A DNA stretch of 64,000 nt. Origin: a bacterium (GTDB taxonomy: Bacteria > UBA8248). The stretch is taken from the NCBI GenBank assembly GCA_965213685.1, contig CBDBZY010000031.1, positions 288,001 through 352,000 on the forward strand, read 5' to 3'. Every line of letters begins with the position of its first letter. Positions within the stretch are counted from its first letter, which is position 1. Made by a program: the position numbers and the translations under genes. Of the stretch, positions 4,733-64,000 are shown one piece after another. The notes beneath the pieces are model-generated. The model worked only from the letters and a program-made list of their open reading frames with translations. It was not told the origin of the DNA and did no database searches.

Positions 4733-6088
4733 TTATCCCGGCTGGGGTGCTCCCCTCCCCTGAAGCAAGTGCGCGCGGTCAGCGGCTCCAACCAGGGCGC
4801 CTCCGGCCGCCCACCAGATCGCAGTGAGCTGAAATGACCCGACCGGGGTATTCGTCTCGAGCATCGACATCAACAGCCCGGACAACACGATGAGGCACAA
4901 TGCGGCGGACTCGTCCCGCTCCGCTACAGTCGCGGACTCGTCCCGGAATATCCGCCATCCGGTGCGCAGGATGCGCATCACCATGAACAGGAACAACAGA
5001 GGCGCCAAAATACCCGTGAAGCTCGCCCAGCGGAGCCAGAGATTATGAATCTCCGCCCGGCGGTTCCATGGGGCTTTCAGCTCCAGCGCGACTTGCCCGA
5101 GTCCATGGCCGAGCAGCGGCCGTTCCGCGATCTTCTCCAGACCGAACAGGTAACCTTGAACGCGGCGCGTGGACGCGGCGTCAATCCTCTTCAGAGCCGC
5201 CGAGGCATCCTGCATATGGCGCGTGGATTTGGTATTCCATACATTGGATTTCACCCTCAGTCTCAAGTGCGTGGCGCATGATCTGTCCATGTACACAATG
5301 CTTGCCAGGAGTCCCAATAAGATGACGATGGCCGCCAGCCGTCTTGTGGAACGCATAAACGCAAAGGCCGCAACTACAAGAAGGGACGACAACATCCCGG
5401 TGCGGCCGCCGCTGATGAATTGGTTGCCAAGAAGAACAACAACTCCAACAACGCCGATGAATTTCCAAACCGTCGGCGAACGATTCCCGGAGGGCAGGAA
5501 GAAAAGCGCCGCCATAGGGATGAAAACCGCCAACCCTACCGACCACGCGGTGGTTTTTGTGCTGAAACCCGTGATGTTGCGCGCTTCCCATAGACAGGGC
5601 CTCTGCCAGTCCGGGGTCCACCAAAGCGTGTCGACCAACACGACGCTTGACAACGCGGCGAGCATGACGAAAGCGCGCTGGAAAATGACGCGGACGTCGC
5701 CGGCATCCCTGGCGACGCAGAAAAAACACCAGAAAAACGCGCTGGAGATGCCGAGCTTGATGACGAATTCGATCACTTTGAATGGCTGCTCGCTGGCCTG
5801 GACGAACCCCGGAATCCACAGCACCAGGACGCCGGCGAACCCGAGCGGGCCCAGCAATCCGGCGGGGAACGGGCGCCTGCGCTTCAGCAGCACCCTCCCG
5901 AGCACCAGGCATGACGCCGCCAGGAATATGCTCCACTCGACCTTTCGCAGGGCGGCCATGCTGATGTCGGGCAGCCAGTAAACCGGACCGAGCGCCAGGA
6001 ACAGGCTGAGCAGCCAGCTCGCCACCTTGTCCACGCCGGGGACCAAGGGAACGACGTCCAGGCGCAAGCGTCCGGGCCAGGCGATCAT
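4733..6088 (-). CDS. O-antigen ligase / Wzy-like membrane protein
   Basis: Many TM helices with SGGRTG, PLLGHGLG and IHNLWL motifs. ATGA overlap with the upstream gene. Confidence 0.8.
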   Translation of the reverse strand: MIAWPGRLRLDVVPLVPGVDKVASWLLSLFLALGPVYWLPDISMAALRKVEWSIFLAASCLVLGRVLLKRRRPFPAGLLGPLGFAGVLVLWIPGFVQASEQPFKVIEFVIKLGISSAFFWCFFCVARDAGDVRVIFQRAFVMLAALSSVVLVDTLWWTPDWQRPCLWEARNITGFSTKTTAWSVGLAVFIPMAALFFLPSGNRSPTVWKFIGVVGVVVLLGNQFISGGRTGMLSSLLVVAAFAFMRSTRRLAAIVILLGLLASIVYMDRSCATHLRLRVKSNVWNTKSTRHMQDASAALKRIDAASTRRVQGYLFGLEKIAERPLLGHGLGQVALELKAPWNRRAEIHNLWLRWASFTGILAPLLFLFMVMRILRTGWRIFRDESATVAERDESAALCLIVLSGLLMSMLETNTPVGSFQLTAIWWAAGGALVGAADRAHLLQGRGAPQPG

Positions 6089-7296
6089 GGCGCGCACGCC
6101 AGGTGCGCGGAGTCGCCTCGCCCCATCGCCAAACTCCTGATTTTATCGCCCAATAACGCGCTCTCGTTGGTATATGCGAACACGGCCTGCGGCAACGCCG
6201 CCATGTTTTCCTTCCAGACTTTCAGGTCTCCGGGCGTCACGGCACAGATTGCATGCACGGCGTCTTCGATATCGTCGCCCTCGACGACCAGCCCGATTTG
6301 ATGTTTTTCCACCTCCTCCGCATCCGCCGTTCCGGCCCGGACGATCAGAGGCTTTTGGAAAAGACAACTTTCGTTGTATCGATTCGATCGCGCCCAGCAT
6401 TGGGGAGGCTGCGTCTCGTAGCACACCAACACCATGTCCACGCTCCCATACAAGTCCGGAAGATCATCGGGATATGCGTATTCTCCCCCGTATTCGATGT
6501 GCGGGTTTCTCTCGAGATACCGGTCGAATTCCTTGATGCGCGGGAGGGGCACGCCCCGGATGACCGCCTCGAAGCCATCGGATGCGGACGTCAAACGCTC
6601 GAGCAGGCGCAAACTCCACGCATTCCCGATGAGCCCGAAATATCCGATGCGAAGCGGTCTGCATTCAAGCGGTTTTCCGTCCGATGCCGGAATTCCCTCC
6701 CTGCGAACCGCTTTGGCGAATGACGCGGGAACCTTGTTCTCAACGATCAGTGCGGGCGTCTCGACGTTCAGGAACGCATGATAGTATCTGAGGTAATGAC
6801 GCGACGTCAGCACCAACAGATCGCTCTTCCCGGTCGCCACCTTGTCGGCAAGCTGCACAAAGCGTTTCATGCGACCGCGCAATCGCCGCCGCCCGATATC
6901 TCTTATATCGACAACCAACGGTTTTTCCAGCCCCAGGCGAGCCGCCAAGCCGAGCCAAGCCATGTCGAATCGGAAGGCGTAGACGATGTCATTGCGTCGA
7001 ACCACGGCGCGAACCTTTGGCGCACGAGCCAGCACCTCCACCCCCCTGAGAAAATGCGTCTTGAAAACGGTTCGGCCCAGCAGATGGGCGGGGGAACAGA
7101 GAAGGGATCCTGTATTATAATGGCGATTATCGAAGGCCATGGTCTCGACCTCGAAGCCCGCCTCTTGAAGCATTCCGATCTGCCGCCATATCCGCGCATG
7201 AATGACTTTAGGCGTCAAGCACAGGATTTTTAGCGGACGCCCCGCTCCGGGCGGCAGAGTTTCCCCCTGTCCAGCCGCCCTGTCAGACGGATTCAC
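6085..7296 (-). CDS. Glycosyltransferase (GT-B, ExoL-like)
   Basis: IVENKV, LRIGYFG, YGGEYAYPDDLPDLY and SNRYNE resemble succinoglycan ExoL-type enzymes. GTG start after GGAGG. Confidence 0.7.
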   Translation of the reverse strand: MNPSDRAAGQGETLPPGAGRPLKILCLTPKVIHARIWRQIGMLQEAGFEVETMAFDNRHYNTGSLLCSPAHLLGRTVFKTHFLRGVEVLARAPKVRAVVRRNDIVYAFRFDMAWLGLAARLGLEKPLVVDIRDIGRRRLRGRMKRFVQLADKVATGKSDLLVLTSRHYLRYYHAFLNVETPALIVENKVPASFAKAVRREGIPASDGKPLECRPLRIGYFGLIGNAWSLRLLERLTSASDGFEAVIRGVPLPRIKEFDRYLERNPHIEYGGEYAYPDDLPDLYGSVDMVLVCYETQPPQCWARSNRYNESCLFQKPLIVRAGTADAEEVEKHQIGLVVEGDDIEDAVHAICAVTPGDLKVWKENMAALPQAVFAYTNESALLGDKIRSLAMGRGDSAHLACAP

Positions 7297-8444: not shown

Positions 8445-9217
8445 ATGATGAAGCGCACCTCCGCACCTCCGCACATGAAAACTATGACCCTGTAGCATCA
8501 TCCGCCGAACCTTCCTCCGAACCCGCATCACGCATTGAGCGCAAGGATTTCCGCGCGTTTCTGAGCGCGCTGCCCGAGGGTTCTGTCGACCTGATCCTCA
8601 CCGATCCGCCCTACGCCATCAGCCGCAAGACCGGTTTCGCCAACGTGAAGGCGGGCGTCCGGCGCTTCGCCGTCTCGATGGACTTCGGCGAATGGGATCA
8701 TGAGCCGATTGACCTGGATGCGCTCTCGGACGCCTCCTACAGGGCGCTGCGGCCCGGCGGAACGGCGATCGTATGGTATGACCTCTGGAAGCTCGGACGC
8801 CTGGCCGACGCCATGGCCGCCGCCGGCTTCAAGATGCTGCGGCTCATCGTATGGAACAAGACAAACCCCGTCCCGCTGAACTCCCGGGCCATATACCTGT
8901 CCAACGGACGCGAGACCGCCGTGCTTGGGGTGAAGCGGGGCAAGCCGACGTTTCATAGCCAATACGACAAGGGCGACTACTCCCTACCCATTCCCAGACA
9001 CAACGGCGCGCGCATCCACCCGACGCAAAAGCCGCTGGGCCTGTTCCAGGAGCTGATCCGCAAGCACAGCAACAGGGGCGACCTCGTGGTCGACCCGTTC
9101 CTGGGCGGCGGAACGACCGCAATCGCCGCCATCTCGGAGGGGCGCCGGTTCGCCGGCTGCGACATTGACTCCAGATACGTAACCGCTGTCCGGAAGCGAA
9201 TCCATGCGCAAGCCTAG
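8445..9217 (+). CDS. Site-specific DNA methyltransferase (beta class, N6/N4); 5' end appears frameshifted by an 8-bp duplication
   Basis: DPPY at 8603-8614, HPTQKP, and DPFLGGGTT. The frame is open from 8441 but has no ATG/GTG before DPPY. ATG 8445 comes into frame if one CGCACCTC copy is removed. Confidence 0.85.
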
Positions 9218-9824
9218 CAAGAAGGACAAATTTCTTGCGCTGGCCAAGCCCGACAAATACGGATTTTCGCGGATGGTTCCCATAGAGGAGCTGGAGAAAA
9301 ACGACCTCGGCTTCGGCAACGGCGGAAGCTGGTGCCGAGAGGACGGGGCGTTGGCGAAACAGTTCAACGTGGAGCGCAAGAAGGAAAAAAACCGCATCGT
9401 CGGCGTTCGGCTGCACGGATGGAAAAAGAACCCGATTCAAAAAACCATCCCCCCACACATCAGAAAGATGATAGTAGCGCGCCCATGCGCGGTTCTGCAT
9501 ACAGGACGCTCGGAATGCGATCACAAAGACGGGCGACTGGACGGGCCCAGTGCGAACCCGGATGATTTTCAGCCCCTGTGCAAAGCCGTCAACAACGCGA
9601 AACGCCAGCACTGCAAAAAGTGCAGGGAAACAGAAGAGAGATTCGACGCGAGAGTCCTTGGATACCGGAAAGGACAATGGGCGGGGAACGGCAGATATAT
9701 GGGGTCCTGCACCGGCTGCTATTGGCATGACCCGCATACGTTCAATCAGAAAGCCTCCGAAAACTGGGGCGTCCTTCGCGGCACCCCCCAGGCCAACGGC
9801 CCGGGCAACGTGGAGGATGCATGA
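9204..9824 (+). CDS. NlaIII/IceA1-like HNH type II restriction endonuclease
   Basis: FLxLAKP, LGFGNGGSWCR, DHKDGR, DDFQPLCKAVNxxKRQxCKxC and CxGCYxxDP match the NlaIII/IceA1 pattern as recalled. Overlaps the MTase stop. Confidence 0.85.
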   Translation: MRKPSKKDKFLALAKPDKYGFSRMVPIEELEKNDLGFGNGGSWCREDGALAKQFNVERKKEKNRIVGVRLHGWKKNPIQKTIPPHIRKMIVARPCAVLHTGRSECDHKDGRLDGPSANPDDFQPLCKAVNNAKRQHCKKCRETEERFDARVLGYRKGQWAGNGRYMGSCTGCYWHDPHTFNQKASENWGVLRGTPQANGPGNVEDA

Positions 9825-10058
9825 GCCGATGACCGCGACAAGGGGGGAACAGACGCGCACAGGCCCGGGCGCGGGGGCACAATGCGGGCAGCCCCGCGCG
9901 TTGTCGTGGGCGGCGTCCGTCGACGCCACGGCAAAAGCGGCCTGTCCCGGGCGGGCGAGGCGAATCCCCTCCGCGCCTTTTCGCCCGCGAACGTTTTTTG
10001 GTGCTAAAATGGCTTCCGTGGAACTCCAAAACACGCGAGCCCGGGGAGGAGGGGGAGG

Positions 10059-10421
10059 ATGCGCGCCAAAAAGTATCGCTGGGACGAGATGCCCGAGGAG
10101 GTCGTGACCGATTCTCTCTCACGGAAAATGGTGGTGGGAGAAAAGGAGATGCTGTGCTGGCTCCGGCTCAAGCCCGGCTGCCTGGTGCCCATGCACAGCC
10201 ACGAGCATGAGCAGATATCGCACGTCATCCAGGGAAGGCTCCGCTTCGTCGTCGACGAGGAGGCCGTGGAAATCGGGCCTGGGGAAACCCTTCTGATCCC
10301 GCCGAACGTCCCCCATTCCGCGGAAGTCGTGGGCGATGAAACGGTGCTGGACTACGATATATTCAGCCCCGTTCGCGAAGACTGGCTCGACGGGAGCGAC
10401 AGCTATCTGAGAGAGGAATAA
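10059..10421 (+). CDS. Cupin domain protein
   Basis: PMHSHEHEQ, IPPNVPH and DIFSPVREDW motifs. Confidence 0.92.
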   Translation: MRAKKYRWDEMPEEVVTDSLSRKMVVGEKEMLCWLRLKPGCLVPMHSHEHEQISHVIQGRLRFVVDEEAVEIGPGETLLIPPNVPHSAEVVGDETVLDYDIFSPVREDWLDGSDSYLREE

Positions 10422-10555
10422 CGCGCGAGTCCCCATCCGCCCGGCCCGTGGAGAGGCCCCAAGGGTCAGGAGCGCCAAGCGCCATCCCGCGATCTTCTCC
10501 CCCCTCCCCGCCCACGACGGCGGCGGCGGGAAAAAGCCGCGGACCTCCCTCGCAT

Positions 10556-10724
10556 ACGCGAGATATTGTATCCACAACCCGTTATGACACTATATATAGA
10601 TTCCCCATAACCGATTGCTTCTTATGCGGTAATTCGTCTCCCCCCATCTGGATAAACTGTGCGTAAAATGAGATTTTTACCCTATATGTTGTGTAGCCAA
10701 AAGAAAACACACTATATCGGGTAT
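10556..10724. promoter_or_regulatory. Four NrdR-like boxes (two tandem pairs) with interspersed DnaA-like boxes
   Basis: NrdR-like: ACGCGAGATATTGTAT (10556), ACACTATATATAGATT (10587), ACCCTATATGTTGTGT (10679), ACACTATATCGGGTAT (10709). DnaA-like: GTATCCACA (10568), TCTGGATAA (10647), TGTGCGTAA (10658). Confidence 0.7.
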
Positions 10725-10904
10725 GGACTACGAGACATATGGAGACGCGCCGCGCGCCCTATTCCGGAGAGAAATCTTATCCGCGCAGAACAGCCAGCGT
10801 TCAAGACAGGCGCATCCGCCCCGCCTTCCAGAAGATGATGCCCGCCATCCCGCCGAGCGCGCCCCTCCAGGGGGGAGAGGGCTTCTTCCCCGCCACGTGC
10901 GACA

Positions 10905-10948
10905 ACAAAAAAAGCCCCCCCCTCCCTCACCGGGAAGGGGGCGGCTTT
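10905..10948 (-). terminator. Rho-independent terminator of hflKC
   Basis: On the minus strand, a GC-rich hairpin AAAGCCGCCCCCTTCCC...GGGAGGGGGGGCTTT followed by a T run. Confidence 0.75.
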
Positions 10949-10964
10949 CGCTGGAGGGAATTCG

Positions 10965-11861
10965 CTATTCGGATTTTTTCCCCTTTGAGTCCTGCAGGAA
11001 GCGGAGGAAATCACTGTTCGCGGGCAGGACGAGGGTCGTCTTGTCCTTCAGGGAGCGGCGGTACACTTCCAGGCTCTTCAGGAAGGCGTAGAATTCCCGA
11101 TCCTGCCGGAACGCCCGGGCGTTGATGTCGATGCTCTTGGCGTCCCCCTCGCCCTTGATGGTCTGTTCTTGCTCATAGGCCTCCGCCAGAAGCACGTCCC
11201 GCTCCCGGTTGGTTTCCGCGCGTATCTTCTCGGCCTGCTCCTTGCCTTCCGAGCGATACTGGCGGGCGATTCGCTGCCGCTCGGCCTGCATGCGCCCGTA
11301 GATCGCCTTCAGGTTCTCCGCGGGCAGATCCGCGCGCTTCAGGCGGACGTCCACTATCTGGATGCCGTATTCGCGCGCCTTCTTGTCGCTCGCCTCGGTG
11401 ACTTTCCCCATCAGCTGCTCGCGATCCTTCGCCACAATGTCGATCAAGTCCTTGCGGCCCAGCTCCAGGCGCAACTCGCTGTAGATGATGTCGTCCAGCC
11501 GCGCTTGTGCCCCCGTTTCGTTCCGGACGGTGCGGAGAAACTGCAGGGGGTCAATGATGCGCCAGCGCGAGAAATTATCCACCACCAGGGTTTTCTTGTC
11601 CTGCGTGATGATCTCCGTCGGGTTGGAGTCATACTCGAGGAGGCGGCGGTCGAAAAACGAGAGCTGCTCCAGAAACGGGACCCGGTAGTGAAGCCCCGCC
11701 TCGCGCAAAACCCGCACGGGCTTCCCGAAGCGGGTGACGACCACTTGCCGGTCTTCTCGGACCGTGAACAAAAACGAATTGAGGCCGACGAGGACGAGCA
11801 CGCCCGCAACAACCAGGGCGATCGTCTTTTTGGGTAGTTGGACCGAGCCCTCGGCGCTCAT
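10965..11861 (-). CDS. hflC: FtsH protease modulator HflC
   Basis: SPFH domain with DKKTLVVD, RMQAER and FYAFLKSLEVY. Lies downstream of hflK. Confidence 0.95.
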   Translation of the reverse strand: MSAEGSVQLPKKTIALVVAGVLVLVGLNSFLFTVREDRQVVVTRFGKPVRVLREAGLHYRVPFLEQLSFFDRRLLEYDSNPTEIITQDKKTLVVDNFSRWRIIDPLQFLRTVRNETGAQARLDDIIYSELRLELGRKDLIDIVAKDREQLMGKVTEASDKKAREYGIQIVDVRLKRADLPAENLKAIYGRMQAERQRIARQYRSEGKEQAEKIRAETNRERDVLLAEAYEQEQTIKGEGDAKSIDINARAFRQDREFYAFLKSLEVYRRSLKDKTTLVLPANSDFLRFLQDSKGKKSE

Positions 11862-12892
11862 CGCTTCGTCACCCCTTCTATGCCATTCCCCCGCAACGGG
11901 AGGATGGGCAAGACCCCGGATTTGCCCTGATTCAGGATCACCTTGTCCACCGTCGGCATCACCTCCTGCATCATTTCCAGATACAGGCGCTCGCGCGTAA
12001 TGGCCGGCGCCTTCCTGTATTCCTCCAAGGTAGCGAGAAAGCGGTTCGCATCTCCGCGCGCGTGCCGAATCTTGGTCTCCCGGTATGCTTCGGATTTTCT
12101 GAGGACGGCGGCCACCTTGCCGCGCGTCTCCGGTATCACCTGGTTTTGATAGCCCTGCGCTTCATTCACGAGGCGGTTTCTGTCCTCCCGGGCGCTCGCC
12201 ACGTCCTTGAAGGCATGAATCACCTCCTTCGGAGGCGTCACGTCCTGCAGCTGCACCGCCGCCACGCGCAAACCGGTCTCGTATCGATCCAGTATCTTCT
12301 GCATCTCCACCAGCGTCTCCTGCTGAATGGCGCCCTTTCCCGTGGTGAGTGCCTCGTCAATGGGCTTGCTGCCCACCACCTGGCGGATGGCGGCCTCCGC
12401 CGCGTGCACCACTGTCTCCCTGGGATTGCGCACCTTGAAGAGATACTTGTCCGCCTCCACGATGCGATACTGAACGATCATGTCCACATCCACCATGTTC
12501 TCGTCGCCGGTCAGCATCCTCGACTCATGGGGCTTGTCCGAATACCGCGCCGGAGGGCCCGGGTCGATGGTGCGGAAGCCGATCTCCACGCGCTTCACCT
12601 CCGTCACCTTCGGCGTATACGCGGTCTCCATCGGGAAGGGGAGGTGATAGTTCAGGCCGGAAGACACCACGCGATCAATGCGTCCAAATCGAAGGACGAT
12701 CCCCTGCTCATCCGGCCCCACGCTGAAGATGCCGGACGCCAGCCATATCAGCACGGCGACAACGAATATGGCGACGGACGGCAGCTTGAAACCGGGCAGG
12801 CGGAACTGGGGCAGCTTGATCTGCTGCGGCATCCCGCCGCCGCCGCCACCGCCCTGTCTTTTCGATTTGAACTCATCCCAGTCCATTGGCAT
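11858..12892 (-). CDS. hflK: FtsH protease modulator HflK
   Basis: MLTGDENMVDV and TRERLYLE motifs, with a Gly-rich N-terminus. Confidence 0.95.
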   Translation of the reverse strand: MPMDWDEFKSKRQGGGGGGGMPQQIKLPQFRLPGFKLPSVAIFVVAVLIWLASGIFSVGPDEQGIVLRFGRIDRVVSSGLNYHLPFPMETAYTPKVTEVKRVEIGFRTIDPGPPARYSDKPHESRMLTGDENMVDVDMIVQYRIVEADKYLFKVRNPRETVVHAAEAAIRQVVGSKPIDEALTTGKGAIQQETLVEMQKILDRYETGLRVAAVQLQDVTPPKEVIHAFKDVASAREDRNRLVNEAQGYQNQVIPETRGKVAAVLRKSEAYRETKIRHARGDANRFLATLEEYRKAPAITRERLYLEMMQEVMPTVDKVILNQGKSGVLPILPLRGNGIEGVTKR

Positions 12893-13001
12893 GAGCGTTT
12901 CTCCTGTTTGGCTATGAGGCAACGTAAAATCACCCTCTGGGGCGGAGGCGCGCTCCTCCGTCCTCCACCGGGGTTCACCCTATGCGGGTTATGGGTTCAA
13001 G

Positions 13002-59885: not shown

Positions 59886-60676
59886 AGAACAACGAATGGC
59901 TGGACGACCATCTGCCGTCGATCTATGACCCGATGCTGACAACGGCGCAGACCGTTGCCGACCGCTATCGTGTTTCCCGCGAAGTGCAGGATGAGTACAG
60001 TTTACAAAGCCAGTTGCGCACGGCGGCGGCGCAGCAGGCCGGCAAGTTCGACGACGAAATCGTGCCGATGACGTCGATCAAAGCGGTAATGAACAAGGAT
60101 ACCGGCGAGGTAACCTACGAGGAAACGGCGCTCGAGAAGGATGAGGGCAACCGGCCCAGCACCACGCTTGAAGGTTTGCAAAGCCTGAAACCGGTGACCC
60201 GGGATGACGGCCATATCACCGCCGGAAATTCCTCGCAGCTTTCCGACGGCGCTTCCGCCGCGGTGGTGATGAGCGATGCGGAGGCGGCCAAGCGTGGTCT
60301 CGAGGTGATGGGGATCTACCGCGGCCTGGTGGTACATGGTTGCGAGCCGGACGAGATGGGCATCGGCCCGGTCTTCGCGGTGCCGAAGTTGTTGGAACGC
60401 AACGGCCTGACCGTCGACGATATCGACCTCTGGGAATTGAACGAAGCCTTCGCCGTGCAGGTACTCTATTGCCGCGACAAGCTCGGCATCGATAACGACA
60501 AGCTGAATGTCAATGGCGGGTCGATCTCCGTTGGTCACCCCTACGGCATGACCGGCGCCCGACTGACGGGCCACGCCCTGATCGAAGGCAAGCGCCGCGG
60601 CGCCAAGCACGTCGTCGTCACCATGTGCGTCGGCACCGGCATGGGCGCCGCCGGCCTGTTCGAGATCCCGCAGTAG
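59886..60676 (+). CDS. Acetyl-CoA acyltransferase (thiolase), C-terminal portion only
   Basis: [21 protein letters not shown] and CVGTGMG are present. The N-terminal part with the nucleophile Cys is missing. Confidence 0.88.
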
Positions 60677-60759
60677 ATATGGTCACGCCATACGCGGTGG
60701 CCGCGGGACCGCAATAGCAAACCGCCGAATGCGGTTGGTTGCGTTGGAGAGTTTGCGGG

Positions 60760-62052
60760 ATGAAGATCAATGGCGATACTCTCGCAAAGATCGTTTCGCT
60801 TGCGTCGGCATTGTTTCTTGCGTTTTTTGTCGGCGGCCTATTCGTCTATTTTAAACTCTTCCCGCACCATTCGATTAAACAGTTCGAGGAGTTTGTTCGC
60901 GGCGTCATTGAGCATCGTGAAGCTTATTTCTTCGGCGCGCCGACCGACCATTTGGAGCCGGCGCGGGGCGAGCCCTATGGTTTTACGGTAGCCGGCGACG
61001 CGCGTGCGCAGCCGGGCTTGACCTTGGTGGTCGGTTTGTTCGGCTACACACTCGGGGCGCGTCTTTATGACAATTCCGGCGAACTGGTCCACGAATGGCC
61101 CGTCGACTTCTTCAAAATCGCGCCGGAAACAATGCTTTACGAGTTCCATGCGTTGATTCACGGCGCCTGGATGTATCCGAACGGTGATTTGCTCATCAAT
61201 CTGGACCGCCGGCATCTCTATCGGATAGATGCTTGCGGGCGGACAGTCTGGGTCAACGCCAATACGCCGCATCATTCGATCCATGTCGACGATCAGGGCT
61301 ATATTTGGACGCCCACCGGGGTTTGGTCGTACAACGAGCCGCGTCTATGGCGAGAGGAAGCGCACGTCGATCGGATCGCCAAGTTCGATCCCGATAACGG
61401 CAAAAAGCTTCTTGAAATTGATCTGGTCGAGTTACTTGTCGAAGCCGAAATGCAGGGCATTGTCTTGGGTGTCGCGAATAAATTCGATGATTTGTTGCAT
61501 CTGAACGACGTCGAAGTGTTGTCGGCCGACATGGCGGCGGCTTTCCCATTGTTCGACGCCGGCGACATTGTTTTGAGTTTTCGCAACACCAACCAACTTT
61601 GGGTGCTCGACGGTCGGACCCACGCGATCAAATGGTGGCAAACCGGACCATGGCGCGGCCAGCACGATCCCGATTTTCAGCCGGATGGATCGATTACGCT
61701 GTTTGACAACCGCAATTCCGTCAAGCCGTCGATCGAGAACGATTTTCTTGGCACGATGGGCGGAAGCCGAATTTTGCGTCTCGATCCGCTGTCCCGGGAA
61801 ACCACGACGTTGTTTCAATCGACGGAGAAGGTCCGGTTTCATTCCGCCTTTCGGGGCAAGCATCAGGTGCTGGCCAATGGCAACATACTGATCACCGAAA
61901 CCGATGCGGGGCGGGCTTTCGAAGTTACGCCCGGCGGCGATATCGTATGGTCCTTTGTCAACGGTTGGGACGAAGACCAAGTGGGTTGGATCATGGGTGC
62001 CTACAAATTTCCCGAGAATTATGGGGCGTTTGCGGCCAACCGTTGTCAGTGA
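60760..62052 (+). CDS. Arylsulfotransferase (ASST) family protein
   Basis: HHSI, LHLNDV, GQHDP, FDN and NGNILITE motifs. Confidence 0.85.
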   Translation: MKINGDTLAKIVSLASALFLAFFVGGLFVYFKLFPHHSIKQFEEFVRGVIEHREAYFFGAPTDHLEPARGEPYGFTVAGDARAQPGLTLVVGLFGYTLGARLYDNSGELVHEWPVDFFKIAPETMLYEFHALIHGAWMYPNGDLLINLDRRHLYRIDACGRTVWVNANTPHHSIHVDDQGYIWTPTGVWSYNEPRLWREEAHVDRIAKFDPDNGKKLLEIDLVELLVEAEMQGIVLGVANKFDDLLHLNDVEVLSADMAAAFPLFDAGDIVLSFRNTNQLWVLDGRTHAIKWWQTGPWRGQHDPDFQPDGSITLFDNRNSVKPSIENDFLGTMGGSRILRLDPLSRETTTLFQSTEKVRFHSAFRGKHQVLANGNILITETDAGRAFEVTPGGDIVWSFVNGWDEDQVGWIMGAYKFPENYGAFAANRCQ

Positions 62053-62076
62053 CGAACACCGTTGATGTCAATGGTG

Positions 62077-63297
62077 TCAGGTTGCAACCGGTAGCCTAAG
62101 CACTTCGCGGAAGCGGACGCGGTCGGCGATTTCGGCTGGACCGGTGAGGTGCAGACGCGGGAAGCGGTGAAAGAGTTGTTGAAAAGCGATCACCCCTTCG
62201 ATACGGGCCAACGCGTTGCCGGCGCAAATGTGAATGCCGAGGCCGAAGGAAAGATGACGGTTCGGCTTGCGGCCGATATCGAAGCGGTCGGGGTCGTCGA
62301 ATTCGGCCGGATCGCGGTTGGCGCCGGCAATCATCAAATGGGCGGTGGCGCCGGCGGGGATTTTGACACCGGCCAGCTCGGTGTCTGCCAAGGCTCTCCG
62401 GTTGTTGATTTGGATCGGCGCCTGATAACGCAGAATTTCTTCAACGCAGGTGTCGATTAGCGAGGGGTCGGCCATGAGGCGCGCGATCTGGTCCGGACGC
62501 TGCAGCATTTCATGGACGCCATGCGAGATCATGTTGGTCGAAGTTTCATGCCCGGCGTTGAGCATGAAAATGCACTGATGCAGCAGTTCAAGCTCGCTTA
62601 ATTTCTCACCATCTTCCTCCGCCTCCATCAGGGCCGTCAGGACCTGCCCGCGGGTACCGTCGCATGGATGTTTGCGAAGATGCGCCACCAAGTCCCGCAA
62701 ATAGGCCTTGAAATCCGCGACCGCTTTATTGCCTTCGTCGAGCTGCGCCGGGCTTAGGGACGGTTCCAGCGCCGTCAGGATTGCCACCGCCCAATGGCGG
62801 ATCAACTCGCGGTCACCGCTCGGCACGCTGAGCATCTCCGAAACTACTTCGATCGGCAGTTTGAAGGAGAAATCGTCGACCACATCCATTTCACCGCGAT
62901 CCTCGAACTGGTCGAGATATTGATCGACGAGTTCCCGAATTTTCGGTTTCAAGGCATCCAGCGCCTTTCGTGTGAACGCGGCCTGGAAAAGATTGCGGAT
63001 GCGGCGATGATCCGGCGGATCGGTGAACACGACGCTGGTGGTGTGATGTTCATAAAGCGGACTGTTGCCGAATTTCGGTTTGAAGTCGGCCTTCTTGTCT
63101 GAACTCCAAAGCGCCGGGTTGCGGTAGATTTGCGTCAGGTCGGCATGGCGAGTCAGCACATAGCTGCCGTCGGGGGCGCGGTGAACCGGATCATGGCTCC
63201 GCAATGCAGCCAGATAACGATAGGGCTCGGCGATGTAATCGGCGGGCAGGCCGGCCAGATCGAAGTCTGCTATGTCCGCCGCGGTCAACTCTTGCAT
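62077..63297 (-). CDS. Cytochrome P450
   Basis: AGHETS, EEILR and HLSFGLGIHICAG motifs. Confidence 0.96.
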   Translation of the reverse strand: MQELTAADIADFDLAGLPADYIAEPYRYLAALRSHDPVHRAPDGSYVLTRHADLTQIYRNPALWSSDKKADFKPKFGNSPLYEHHTTSVVFTDPPDHRRIRNLFQAAFTRKALDALKPKIRELVDQYLDQFEDRGEMDVVDDFSFKLPIEVVSEMLSVPSGDRELIRHWAVAILTALEPSLSPAQLDEGNKAVADFKAYLRDLVAHLRKHPCDGTRGQVLTALMEAEEDGEKLSELELLHQCIFMLNAGHETSTNMISHGVHEMLQRPDQIARLMADPSLIDTCVEEILRYQAPIQINNRRALADTELAGVKIPAGATAHLMIAGANRDPAEFDDPDRFDIGRKPNRHLSFGLGIHICAGNALARIEGVIAFQQLFHRFPRLHLTGPAEIADRVRFREVLRLPVAT

Positions 63298-63371
63298 CGC
63301 CCTCTCCCTCTTGCCAGAGCATAGCCGCAGGTGGGATGATCGCCAAGGCCGGTATGGGACCCGAGGCAAAT

Positions 63372-64000
63372 ATGAAAACATCCGTTTCGATCGGCGGTTA
63401 CGCCTATGACGAAATTCTCGAAACCGTCGAATTCGTGCAAGCCGCGGAGCGTTTGGGGGTGTCATACGTCTTTTCGGCGGAAGCCTGGGGCCAGGACGCG
63501 GTGACCAGCCTTGCCTATCTCGCCGGCAAAACGGAAAAGATCAAACTTGGCACCGGGATCATGCAAATCAGCGCGCGCGCCGCCTCGATGACCGCGATGA
63601 CGGCGTTGTCGCTGAACAATCTCAGTCGCGGCCGGTTCGTCCTTGGGCTTGGTGCCAGCGGACCGCAAGTGGTCGAGGGCCTGCACGGAGTGCCATACGC
63701 GCAACCCCTGACGCGGCTCAAAGAGACCGTCGCGGTGATGCGCATGGCCTTCCGGGGCGAGAAGCTGCGATATGACGGCAAGCATTTGGTCTTGCCGCGG
63801 CCGGGCGGCGAGGGCAAGGCGATCCGCCTCGACCACCAACCGGCGGATATCCCGATCTATCTGGCAACCCTTGGGCCGAAGTCGCTTGAATTCACCGGTG
63901 CCGCCGCCGACGGTTGGCTCGGGACCTCGTTTTCGCCGGACCACGCGGAAGCCCATCTCGATCACATCCGCAAAGGCGCGGAAGCGGCGGGGCGCAGTCT
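63372..64000 (+). CDS. LLM class (probably F420-dependent) oxidoreductase, runs off the window end
   Basis: Manual translation: MKTSVSIGG...AEAWGQDA...LGTGIMQISAR...GRFVLGLGASGPQVVEGLHG. Confidence 0.9.
   Translation, partial: MKTSVSIGGYAYDEILETVEFVQAAERLGVSYVFSAEAWGQDAVTSLAYLAGKTEKIKLGTGIMQISARAASMTAMTALSLNNLSRGRFVLGLGASGPQVVEGLHGVPYAQPLTRLKETVAVMRMAFRGEKLRYDGKHLVLPRPGGEGKAIRLDHQPADIPIYLATLGPKSLEFTGAAADGWLGTSFSPDHAEAHLDHIRKGAEAAGRS

Follow-up and report, generated by a model that had tools for sequence, protein, structure and literature searches.

The locus and its features

The window analysed here is a stretch of 64,000 nucleotides from an uncultured bacterium of the GTDB lineage UBA8248 (contig CBDBZY010000031.1, hereafter C31, positions 288,001 to 352,000), and the element under study is an AT-rich island at its positions 10556-10724, in which two pairs of NrdR boxes bracket DnaA boxes and an IHF-like site (Table 1). 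The island occupies the centre of the 540-bp intergenic region that extends from the stop codon of a cupin gene to the terminator of the convergent hflC gene, past the end of the hflKC unit, and its GC content is 0.40-0.44 as against 62-65% (~0.62) in the surroundings; the AT-rich character of the island, its position between the two convergent genes and the terminator had been noted by the initial annotation, a model's note drawn from the letters, and our analysis bears them out. As also stated there, no nrd or dnaA gene adjoins the element and the rRNA operon points towards it; the ribonucleotide reductase (RNR) gene lies on another contig (C38) and dnaA on a contig other than C31. The genome encodes both DnaA and NrdR, the latter with a full-length TIGR00244 match of 185 bits.

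Table 1. Coordinates of the element's components and of the genes around it, in window positions.
Feature	Position	Strand	Remarks
NrdR box 1, ACGCGAGATATTGTAT	10556..10571	.	Distal pair; 6/6 critical positions, each invariant in the 21-genome alignment
NrdR box 2, ACACTATATATAGATT	10587..10602	.	Distal pair; 6/6 critical positions, invariant in 21 genomes
NrdR box 3, ACCCTATATGTTGTGT	10679..10694	.	Proximal pair; 6/6 critical positions, invariant in 21 genomes
NrdR box 4, ACACTATATCGGGTAT	10709..10724	.	Proximal pair; 5/6 critical positions in the window (T11 -> G)
Single DnaA box, GTATCCACA	10568..10576	+	1 mismatch to TTATCCACA
IHF-like site, AAGCAATCGGTTA	10608..10620	-	Between oppositely oriented DnaA boxes
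Double DnaA box, TTACGCACA-gt-TTATCCAGA	10647..10666	-	Two same-orientation 9-mers, 2-bp spacer
Promoter remnant, GAGACA-22 nt-TATTCC	10732..10765	+	Aligned with the relatives' TTGACA-N17-TACATT
RNA remnant	10797..10853	+	5' hairpin piece, AGGCGCATCCGCCCC, joined to CCTTCCAGAAGATGATGCCC, the 3' half of the C/U-rich hairpin
hflC intrinsic terminator	10917-10941	-	Terminator prediction
Cupin_2 gene	10059-10421	+	Left flank of the element; Pfam match
SPFH/Band_7 genes hflC and hflK	10965-12922 (hflC 10965-11861)	-	Right flank of the element; Pfam match
rRNA operon	26160-31693	-	Reads towards the element

The assembly of the window's own genome (G000) is a mixture of at least two organisms, with 49 contigs (3.07 Mb) above 60% GC and the rest (~4.9 Mb) at 33-54% GC, a mixture that its quality figures (94% complete, 3.7% contaminated) do not reveal. 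All genome-wide statistics given below were computed on the 49 high-GC contigs, taken as the window's organism. The 22 relatives referred to throughout belong to the same genus, and genomes of other genera served as controls.

Two pairs of NrdR boxes

The NrdR box was reportedly first defined by Rodionov and Gelfand in 2005. A mutational study of 2026 singles out C4, A6, A8, T9, T11 and G13 as the critical positions of the box (PMC13584703), and NrdR needs two boxes with a linker of 15-16 bp, one of 26-27 bp being also functional (PMC13584703, PMC12051234). The four 16-mers proposed in the initial annotation are present with start-to-start spacings of 31, 92 and 30 bp, forming a distal pair (10556/10587) with a 15-bp linker and a proximal pair (10679/10709) with a 14-bp linker, and they hold 23 of the 24 critical bases. 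The missing base, T11 of box 4, is kept in 19 of 21 genomes, the other five critical positions of this box being invariant, and the registers of 31 and 30 bp are identical in all 20 genomes measured.

A strict pair was defined as two boxes with all six critical positions in a register of 30-32 or 41-43 bp. Single sites with the six positions number 362 in the 3.07 Mb and pairs in register only four, namely the left pair of the element, the pair at C38:31575 in the organism's own nrdJ promoter, a pair in the promoter of a small open reading frame (ORF) on contig C43 and a GC-rich pair on C12 that is probably a chance match; ten first-order Markov genomes yielded 0, 0, 1, 0, 0, 0, 0, 0, 0 and 0 strict pairs. 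Since the genome's own nrdJ promoter is recovered by the same test, we trust it as internally controlled. With the consensus of the initial annotation, 7 sites in the 3.07 Mb reach at least 13/16 matches and 3 of them fall within the element. Judged by their sequence, the four boxes are genuine NrdR-type operator pairs, far beyond chance. Operators of this type are expected at the promoter of an RNR operon (or of nrdR); here the flanking genes are the cupin gene and hflC. The initial annotation had named a missing nrdR, an nrd operon at this place in relatives and unconserved boxes as findings that would tell against it; nrdR is present, the relatives' locus holds no nrd operon and the boxes are conserved. 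A leftover nrd promoter was also considered and rejected, no RNR gene occurring at the locus in any of the 22 relatives.

DnaA boxes and IHF-like site

Three of the four DnaA-like 9-mers listed in the initial annotation stand, those at 10568, 10655-10647 and 10666-10658, and the weak one at 10601 (TTCCCCATA) was discounted for its 3 mismatches and its location in a poorly conserved spacer. The minus-strand 9-mers, TTACGCACA at 10666-10658 and TTATCCAGA at 10655-10647, have 2 and 1 mismatches to TTATCCACA and constitute a double DnaA box as defined in E. coli, i.e. same-orientation 9-mers 2 or 3 bp apart (PMC11317965), an arrangement that chromatin immunoprecipitation sequencing (ChIP-seq) in that species located at nearly all DnaA-bound sites, nrdA included (PMC11317965). 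The 2-bp spacer is retained in 22/22 genomes, no box has more than 2 mismatches in 21/22, and 13 of the 20 columns are invariant in the 21-genome alignment. The single box shares 4 bp with the 3' end of NrdR box 1, and outside this overlap 4 of its 5 columns are invariant across the 21 genomes. DnaA-box clustering by itself is within chance in this genome: 231 sites have at most 1 mismatch and form 3 close pairs (two such boxes within 150 bp), as against ~2.6 expected, the remaining two pairs lying beside dnaA and upstream of dcd. Because counts alone are not significant, the weight of the cluster rests on its conservation and geometry. The IHF-like site, also anticipated in the initial annotation, departs by one mismatch from (A/T)ATCAAnnnnTT(A/G), the consensus quoted in PMC5742627; 7 of its 13 columns are invariant in the 21 genomes, the motif as a regular expression matches 19/22 genomes, and four HU/IHF-family genes are present on this organism's contigs.

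An AT-rich island with three DnaA boxes, an IHF-like site and genus-wide conservation might be taken for the chromosomal replication origin. However, on C31 the GC skew stays negative from one side of the element to the other and does not turn at it, and in the complete relative G007 the cumulative-skew minimum within the 400 kb around the element falls at 360-365 kb, coincident with dnaA (~362 kb), the element being at 175.5 kb. The distance to dnaA is 154-281 kb in the 4/4 complete relatives checked (186 kb in G007), DnaA boxes of the TT(A/T)TCCACA type flank dnaA itself in the window's genome, and the rRNA operon reads towards the element. We therefore rejected the origin and give it virtually no credence, in agreement with the initial annotation, which had argued against oriC.

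Conservation of the array across the genus

Comparison of the intergenic region by blastn with 40 relatives at large matched 21 of the 22 genomes of the genus, only over 10561-10717 and at 72-80% identity. The 18 genomes from outside the genus yielded no copy of the element; one of them (G024) gave two ~30-base matches with E ~1e-4, both outside the box array. The 22nd member of the genus, G019, has a diverged copy that was found by reading the locus between the end of a cupin-like gene and hflC. The DNA beside hflC was also read in two further genera of the same family and in two further families of the order, and no element was seen there. In a relative whose flanks were read (L006), cupin and hflC flank the element just as they do in the window. 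A collection-wide scan with a 16-base word covering box 1 and the DnaA box, which could match by chance, retrieved loci of which 3 of the 80 fetched hold the element.

Within the 21-genome alignment, 9/16, 6/16, 7/16 and 6/16 columns are invariant in boxes 1 to 4, and none is in the 5' flank (0/55), linker 1 (0/10), two of the spacers (a and c; 0/5 and 0/12) or the downstream part (0/52); the intergenic DNA on either side of the array is not alignable across the genus. This punctuated pattern is exactly what protein-binding sites would predict.

nrdJ promoters and further sites of the same kind

The only RNR gene detected in the organism is nrdJ, of class II, on contig C38, with the strict NrdR pair upstream of it mentioned above. 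In the nine relatives whose nrdJ upstream regions were read, a near-consensus DnaA box (TTATCCACA, plus strand) is followed by an NrdR-type box sharing bases with the beginning of a double DnaA box on the minus strand (TGGGGATAA-gg-TGTGGGTAA or similar sequences); next come another NrdR-like box, a tract of T, TTGACA and, over the -10 position, one more NrdR box. This last box, ATACTACATTTAGTGT, is almost identical to box 4 of the relatives' elements, ACACTACATTTTGTGT, and most of the nine have a further box downstream. These parallels of order and sequence (…GGATAA-NN-TGTGGGTAAG-TCAT…) suggest that the element is a second nrd-type control region, related to the first by common descent or strong convergence. 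The nrdJ promoter of G000 (C38 ~31450-31700) is rebuilt in comparison with those of the nine relatives: the strict NrdR pair still flanks TTGACA, no DnaA box with at most 2 mismatches lies within 400 nt, and the word TGTTG(C/T)(G/A)AT(A/T) occurs in five copies, three of them as TGTTGnGATAATA.

On C43 of G000, a third strict pair at 79346-79392 (31-bp register, 6/6 positions) is kept in 10/10 genomes examined, and the locus (L194) is present in 22/22 relatives. Directly downstream, the ORF 79450-79680 has a strong ribosome-binding site and encodes a conserved protein of 73-76 aa (…SKRIHQACMRNLALYLQG.ISYEDW…QEELESRLTPAPELPF…) that belongs to no Pfam family and is probably an undescribed member of the NrdR regulon; the next gene is that of a cold-shock protein. 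No other promoter is evident between the pair and the ribosome-binding site, and the TATATA in the middle of the second box probably serves as the -10 element, which suggests that box-embedded promoters are in use in this genus. Box 2 of the element and the second box of the relatives' C43 operator are identical at 15/16 positions.

Two other places in G000 carry sites of related appearance. At C34 ~6146-6270, upstream of a dCTP-deaminase-like gene (5211-5765, minus strand; N-terminus recognised by eye), an NrdR-like box (13/16) occurs with TTGTCCACA-tc-TTACGCACA, a double DnaA box, and with an additional CTATCCACA, this being one of the three close DnaA clusters of the genome. At C3 278140-278155, a single NrdR-like box, ACACAAAATGTTGTGT (14/16), is separated by 5 bp from a downstream TTGACA, and a mutL-like gene follows (N-terminal motif, by eye); single boxes are reported not to be bound by NrdR (PMC12051234).

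A promoter and a putative RNA downstream of the array in relatives

The initial annotation considered the array to have no gene to regulate. This does not hold for the genus, since a promoter and a putative RNA follow box 4 in 18 of the 22 relatives. The promoter, TTGACA-N17-TACATT or a close variant (TTGACA-N17-TAnAnT), directly follows the box; it is lacking in G001, G007 and G009, and in G003 the region is cut by a contig end. A promoter scan found the site in relative L006 with 10/12 matches. On its 3' side extends a region of ~210 nt (range ~210-290 nt) with 84% mean column identity, whose flanks are not alignable; beyond it comes the terminator shared with hflC, whose hairpin could stop plus-strand transcripts too. 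The consensus fold comprises a stem that closes the structure, a middle domain that varies and carries compensatory changes, a near-invariant hairpin (GGGCAUC-[GCCUGCCCUUUCCUUCCAGAG]-GAUGCCC) whose C/U-rich loop resembles an anti-Shine-Dalgarno sequence, and then a G+C hairpin. Of its 44 pairs, 4 show compensatory changes, and 97.7% of the cells are paired as against 46-55% with slid partners; none of 500 shuffles reaches the observed covariation score, the structure having been derived from the same, closely related sequences.

A covariance model of the 3' domain of the RNA gives one match per genome, always at this locus, in 18 of the 22 relatives (17 of the 18 matches being in the training set, with G003 as the sole new one), and 0 matches in 38 genomes of 29 other genera. 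Rfam searches of the window at the gathering threshold, and of the intergenic region and four relatives' loci by E-value, returned chance-level matches only (plant-virus hairpin and microRNA models), on which grounds assignment to a known RNA family was rejected. Of what is customarily asked of a small RNA (sRNA) gene, relatives show a promoter (18/22), a shared terminator and weak covariation; in the window, neither the promoter scan nor the RNA models find a match at the locus. The other suggestion of the initial annotation, an NrdR-controlled sRNA promoter, is accordingly the better supported one for the genus; in the window itself promoter and RNA are decayed.

Alternatively, the transcript could encode a small protein of ~30 aa (...PGIACPF[LP]PEDAPIPPRGPHGAP), with the array as its promoter and operator in the manner of the C43 locus. 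In 11 of 17 genomes, a frame of 28-55 codons that has an in-frame start and soon meets a stop is indeed open across the most conserved part of the RNA, which counts against a non-coding output; several of the substitutions in the core are synonymous, and another NrdR pair of the genus, that on C43, drives a small ORF. However, 3 of the 17 genomes (G018, G021 and G019) have no in-frame start, G018 and G021 carry a 2-nt indel, and in 3 others (G014, G020 and G011) a 1-nt indel in the loop lets the frame pass through the terminator and stay open over more than 90 codons. In contrast to nrdJ and the C43 ORF, none of the candidate starts has a Shine-Dalgarno-like sequence before it, and G019 keeps both hairpin stems with the peptide almost completely changed. 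A peptide gene is in our opinion very improbable, and these features favour a non-coding RNA as the downstream unit in the genus.

The decayed copy in the window

Compared with its relatives, the window has a promoter of degraded hexamers at a 22-nt spacing, and an RNA region from which ~100 nt are deleted and whose 5' part is unrecognisable. Its array is thus nearly an orphan, the strong promoter and the RNA having apparently decayed. The junction of AGGCGCATCCGCCCC and CCTTCCAGAAGATGATGCCC may re-create a hairpin with a C/U-rich loop. A second copy of the RNA elsewhere in the assembly was rejected, neither nhmmer (best E=4) nor the covariance model recovering one. In the nrdJ tree, the genomes with reduced or absent RNA (G019, G001, G007, G000 and G009) fall outside the full-RNA clade, within which only G010 has a shortened form; since both ends of the full RNA can be aligned with the remnants in G000 and G009, we take the full form to be ancestral. 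By analogy with the C43 pair, weak promoters embedded in the boxes may persist in the window, namely TTGTAT-N19-TATATA (10566-10596) and TTGTGT-N18-TATATC (10689-10718), which a consensus scan does not flag.

This state of the locus could mean that the element is a functionless relic in this genome, an operator left over from the decay of the sRNA gene and itself awaiting erosion. The degraded promoter hexamers, the deleted RNA of which the assembly has no other copy, and the loss of T11 in box 4 would all be expected of a relic. Nevertheless, next to a promoter and an RNA that have drifted far, the array has kept 23 of its 24 critical NrdR bases along with an intact double DnaA box and IHF-like site. 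G001, G007 and G009 show this pattern again, with deletions that differ from one to the other, and neutral intergenic DNA on either side has diverged beyond alignment across the genus. We consider a relic improbable.

Proposed role and its alternatives

We lean, with considerable reserve, to the view that the AT-rich island is a genus-conserved nrd-type NrdR/DnaA control region with an sRNA as its output. Under ample dATP, NrdR tetramers would occupy the box pairs and shut off rightward transcription, as extrapolated from other NrdR proteins; DnaA at the double box, upstream of the proximal pair, would modulate the same promoters as it does at E. coli nrdAB, and the distal NrdR pair together with a bend at the IHF-like site may tighten repression. 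The output in most of the genus would be a single-copy, genus-specific putative non-coding RNA of ~210-290 nt expressed together with nrdJ, so that the sRNA would be a non-RNR member of the NrdR/DnaA regulon. In the window, the operator array would remain with at most the weak box-embedded promoters and a shortened transcript running to the shared terminator. We infer binding and transcription from motif quality, geometry, conservation and analogy.

Several observations weigh against this interpretation. The four genomes without the TTGACA promoter (the window's own, G001, G007 and G009) keep all four NrdR boxes and the DnaA boxes, with scores of 6/6 in every box in G001 and G009 and of 6, 6, 6 and 5 in both G007 and the window, the double box being kept in all; in G001 and G007 essentially no RNA region is left, i.e. 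the array is conserved without its supposed output. The promoter scan found no sigma-70-like promoter in the window's element. In an nhmmer search for the RNA the whole assembly, the locus of the remnant included, gave nothing below E=4, the covariance model had no match in the genome, and the remnant folds no better than shuffled sequences (z = +0.35 and -1.06); over this remnant and the relatives' hairpin domain z ranges from +0.35 to -1.59, which in this GC-rich context lends no support. Covariation in the RNA is thin, with 4 pairs and 9 cells, and was tested on the very sequences that gave the structure. The proximal linker of 14 bp is one short of the predominant 15-16 bp; such linkers are also known at the Thermotoga nrdJ promoter (PMC13584703). 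Finally, neither component of the assembly (94% complete) yielded an Hfq (PF17209) match, and this bears on how an sRNA would act here. Conservation of the array where a recognisable output has gone would imply either that short unrecognised transcripts still matter or that the array has a role independent of transcription.

The latter is the substance of a different explanation, according to which the element is a stand-alone nucleoprotein locus where DnaA, an IHF-like bender and NrdR assemble to titrate DnaA or alter its nucleotide state, as datA and DARS do, NrdR occupancy reporting dATP/ATP and transcription of the neighbouring RNA being secondary or separate. Preservation of the whole array in the window, G001, G007 and G009, whose promoter and RNA have diverged beyond recognition or been deleted, speaks for it, and so do the three DnaA boxes with one opposite to two, the count and orientation of a DARS core (PMC5742627), the IHF site between DnaA boxes, known for datA and oriC, and the intergenic position downstream of two genes, as at datA (PMC5742627). 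The 4-bp overlap of NrdR box 1 with the single DnaA box and the distance from dnaA in the four complete relatives are also in line with it. On the other hand, the same grammar at the relatives' nrdJ promoters is explained by plain transcription control, and the array is promoter-proximal in 18/22 relatives. G019 represents the converse of the four genomes just mentioned: it has lost the distal NrdR pair, and its proximal pair and double box are still there together with the promoter and a mini RNA, so that selection there appears to follow the transcription unit. In addition, ~70 bp separate the single box from the double box, unlike the close spacing of the three boxes in a DARS core, datA has its essential boxes in one common direction and the element does not, and DnaA-box density as such is not above chance in the genome. 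On this evidence we hold a stand-alone locus to be possible, if doubtful.

A more specific proposal is that the element is a replication-control locus, a DARS/datA-like DnaA-IHF assembly gated by NrdR as dATP/ATP sensor, through which the deoxynucleoside triphosphate (dNTP) pool would feed into the DnaA cycle. Gating of DnaA access by NrdR is proposed because box 1 shares bases with a DnaA box and the DnaA/IHF core is enclosed by two NrdR pairs, and it would explain why four species keep every site after losing promoter and RNA. We regard this proposal as unlikely; should the array function in the absence of a transcript, dNTP sensing would be physically and directly tied to the DnaA cycle.

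The element presents a complete two-pair NrdR operator and a double DnaA box at a non-RNR locus, conserved down to single bases throughout a genus of uncultured bacteria. Together with the C43 ORF, it suggests that an NrdR/DnaA regulon for dNTP supply can take in an sRNA and a small protein. Whichever interpretation holds, its two pairs, with 15- and 14-bp linkers and overlapping DnaA sites, make it a clean natural test case for NrdR biochemistry.

Other features of the window

The mechanically predicted ORFs 10448-10666, 10712-11014, 10723-11091, 10739-11125 and 10119-10577 were dismissed as spurious, having no Pfam match and showing non-triplet indels among relatives. Beside the cupin gene, on its upstream side, an ORF of 396 aa (8844-10034, minus strand) has no Pfam match. 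At window positions ~60000-64000 (C31 from ~348 kb to the contig end), GC content falls from ~0.67 to 0.57-0.61 and GC skew turns from negative to positive, which could mark an island, an inversion boundary or a replichore feature.

Comparison with known systems

In the literature covered, the firmly established NrdR targets are RNR operons, with topA of Pseudomonas aeruginosa as the sole and disputed exception, and among the papers listed by a full-text literature search there was no report of an NrdR-controlled sRNA. Like the element, topA is a non-RNR target, linked to DNA metabolism (PMC4409342); it has a single box and apparent activation (PMC4409342), whereas the element has two complete conserved pairs, and regulation of topA has been questioned by NrdR biochemists since NrdR needs two boxes (PMC12051234).

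The E. coli loci datA, DARS1 and DARS2 are, like the element, non-coding DnaA-box clusters away from the origin, DARS with three boxes, one of them opposite, and datA with an IHF site between boxes in an intergenic region downstream of two genes (PMC5742627). The element departs from the spacing of the DARS core and from the orientation rule of datA, and it is promoter-proximal in most species. Moreover, no NrdR involvement is known for either datA or DARS in the sources covered, whereas the cluster of the element is bracketed by predicted NrdR pairs.

Two NrdR pairs within one control region have a precedent at nrdAB of Listeria monocytogenes, where the distal pair also has a linker of 15 bp (PMC12051234, PMC13584703); its role is called unclear by the authors, who suggest more stringent repression (PMC12051234, PMC13584703). 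The Listeria pairs serve an RNR operon and are 113 bp apart, whereas boxes 1 and 3 of the element start 123 bp apart with DnaA and IHF-like sites between them.

The E. coli nrdAB promoter shares with the element NrdR boxes and a same-orientation double DnaA box upstream of the promoter (PMC12176259, PMC11317965). It has one box pair and the element two full pairs; no RNR gene follows the element in the window or in the 22 relatives, the output being a putative non-coding RNA that in the window is unrecognisable. In E. coli this architecture controls genes for dNTP supply (PMC12176259, PMC11317965), and the genus that carries the element builds its own nrdJ promoters likewise.

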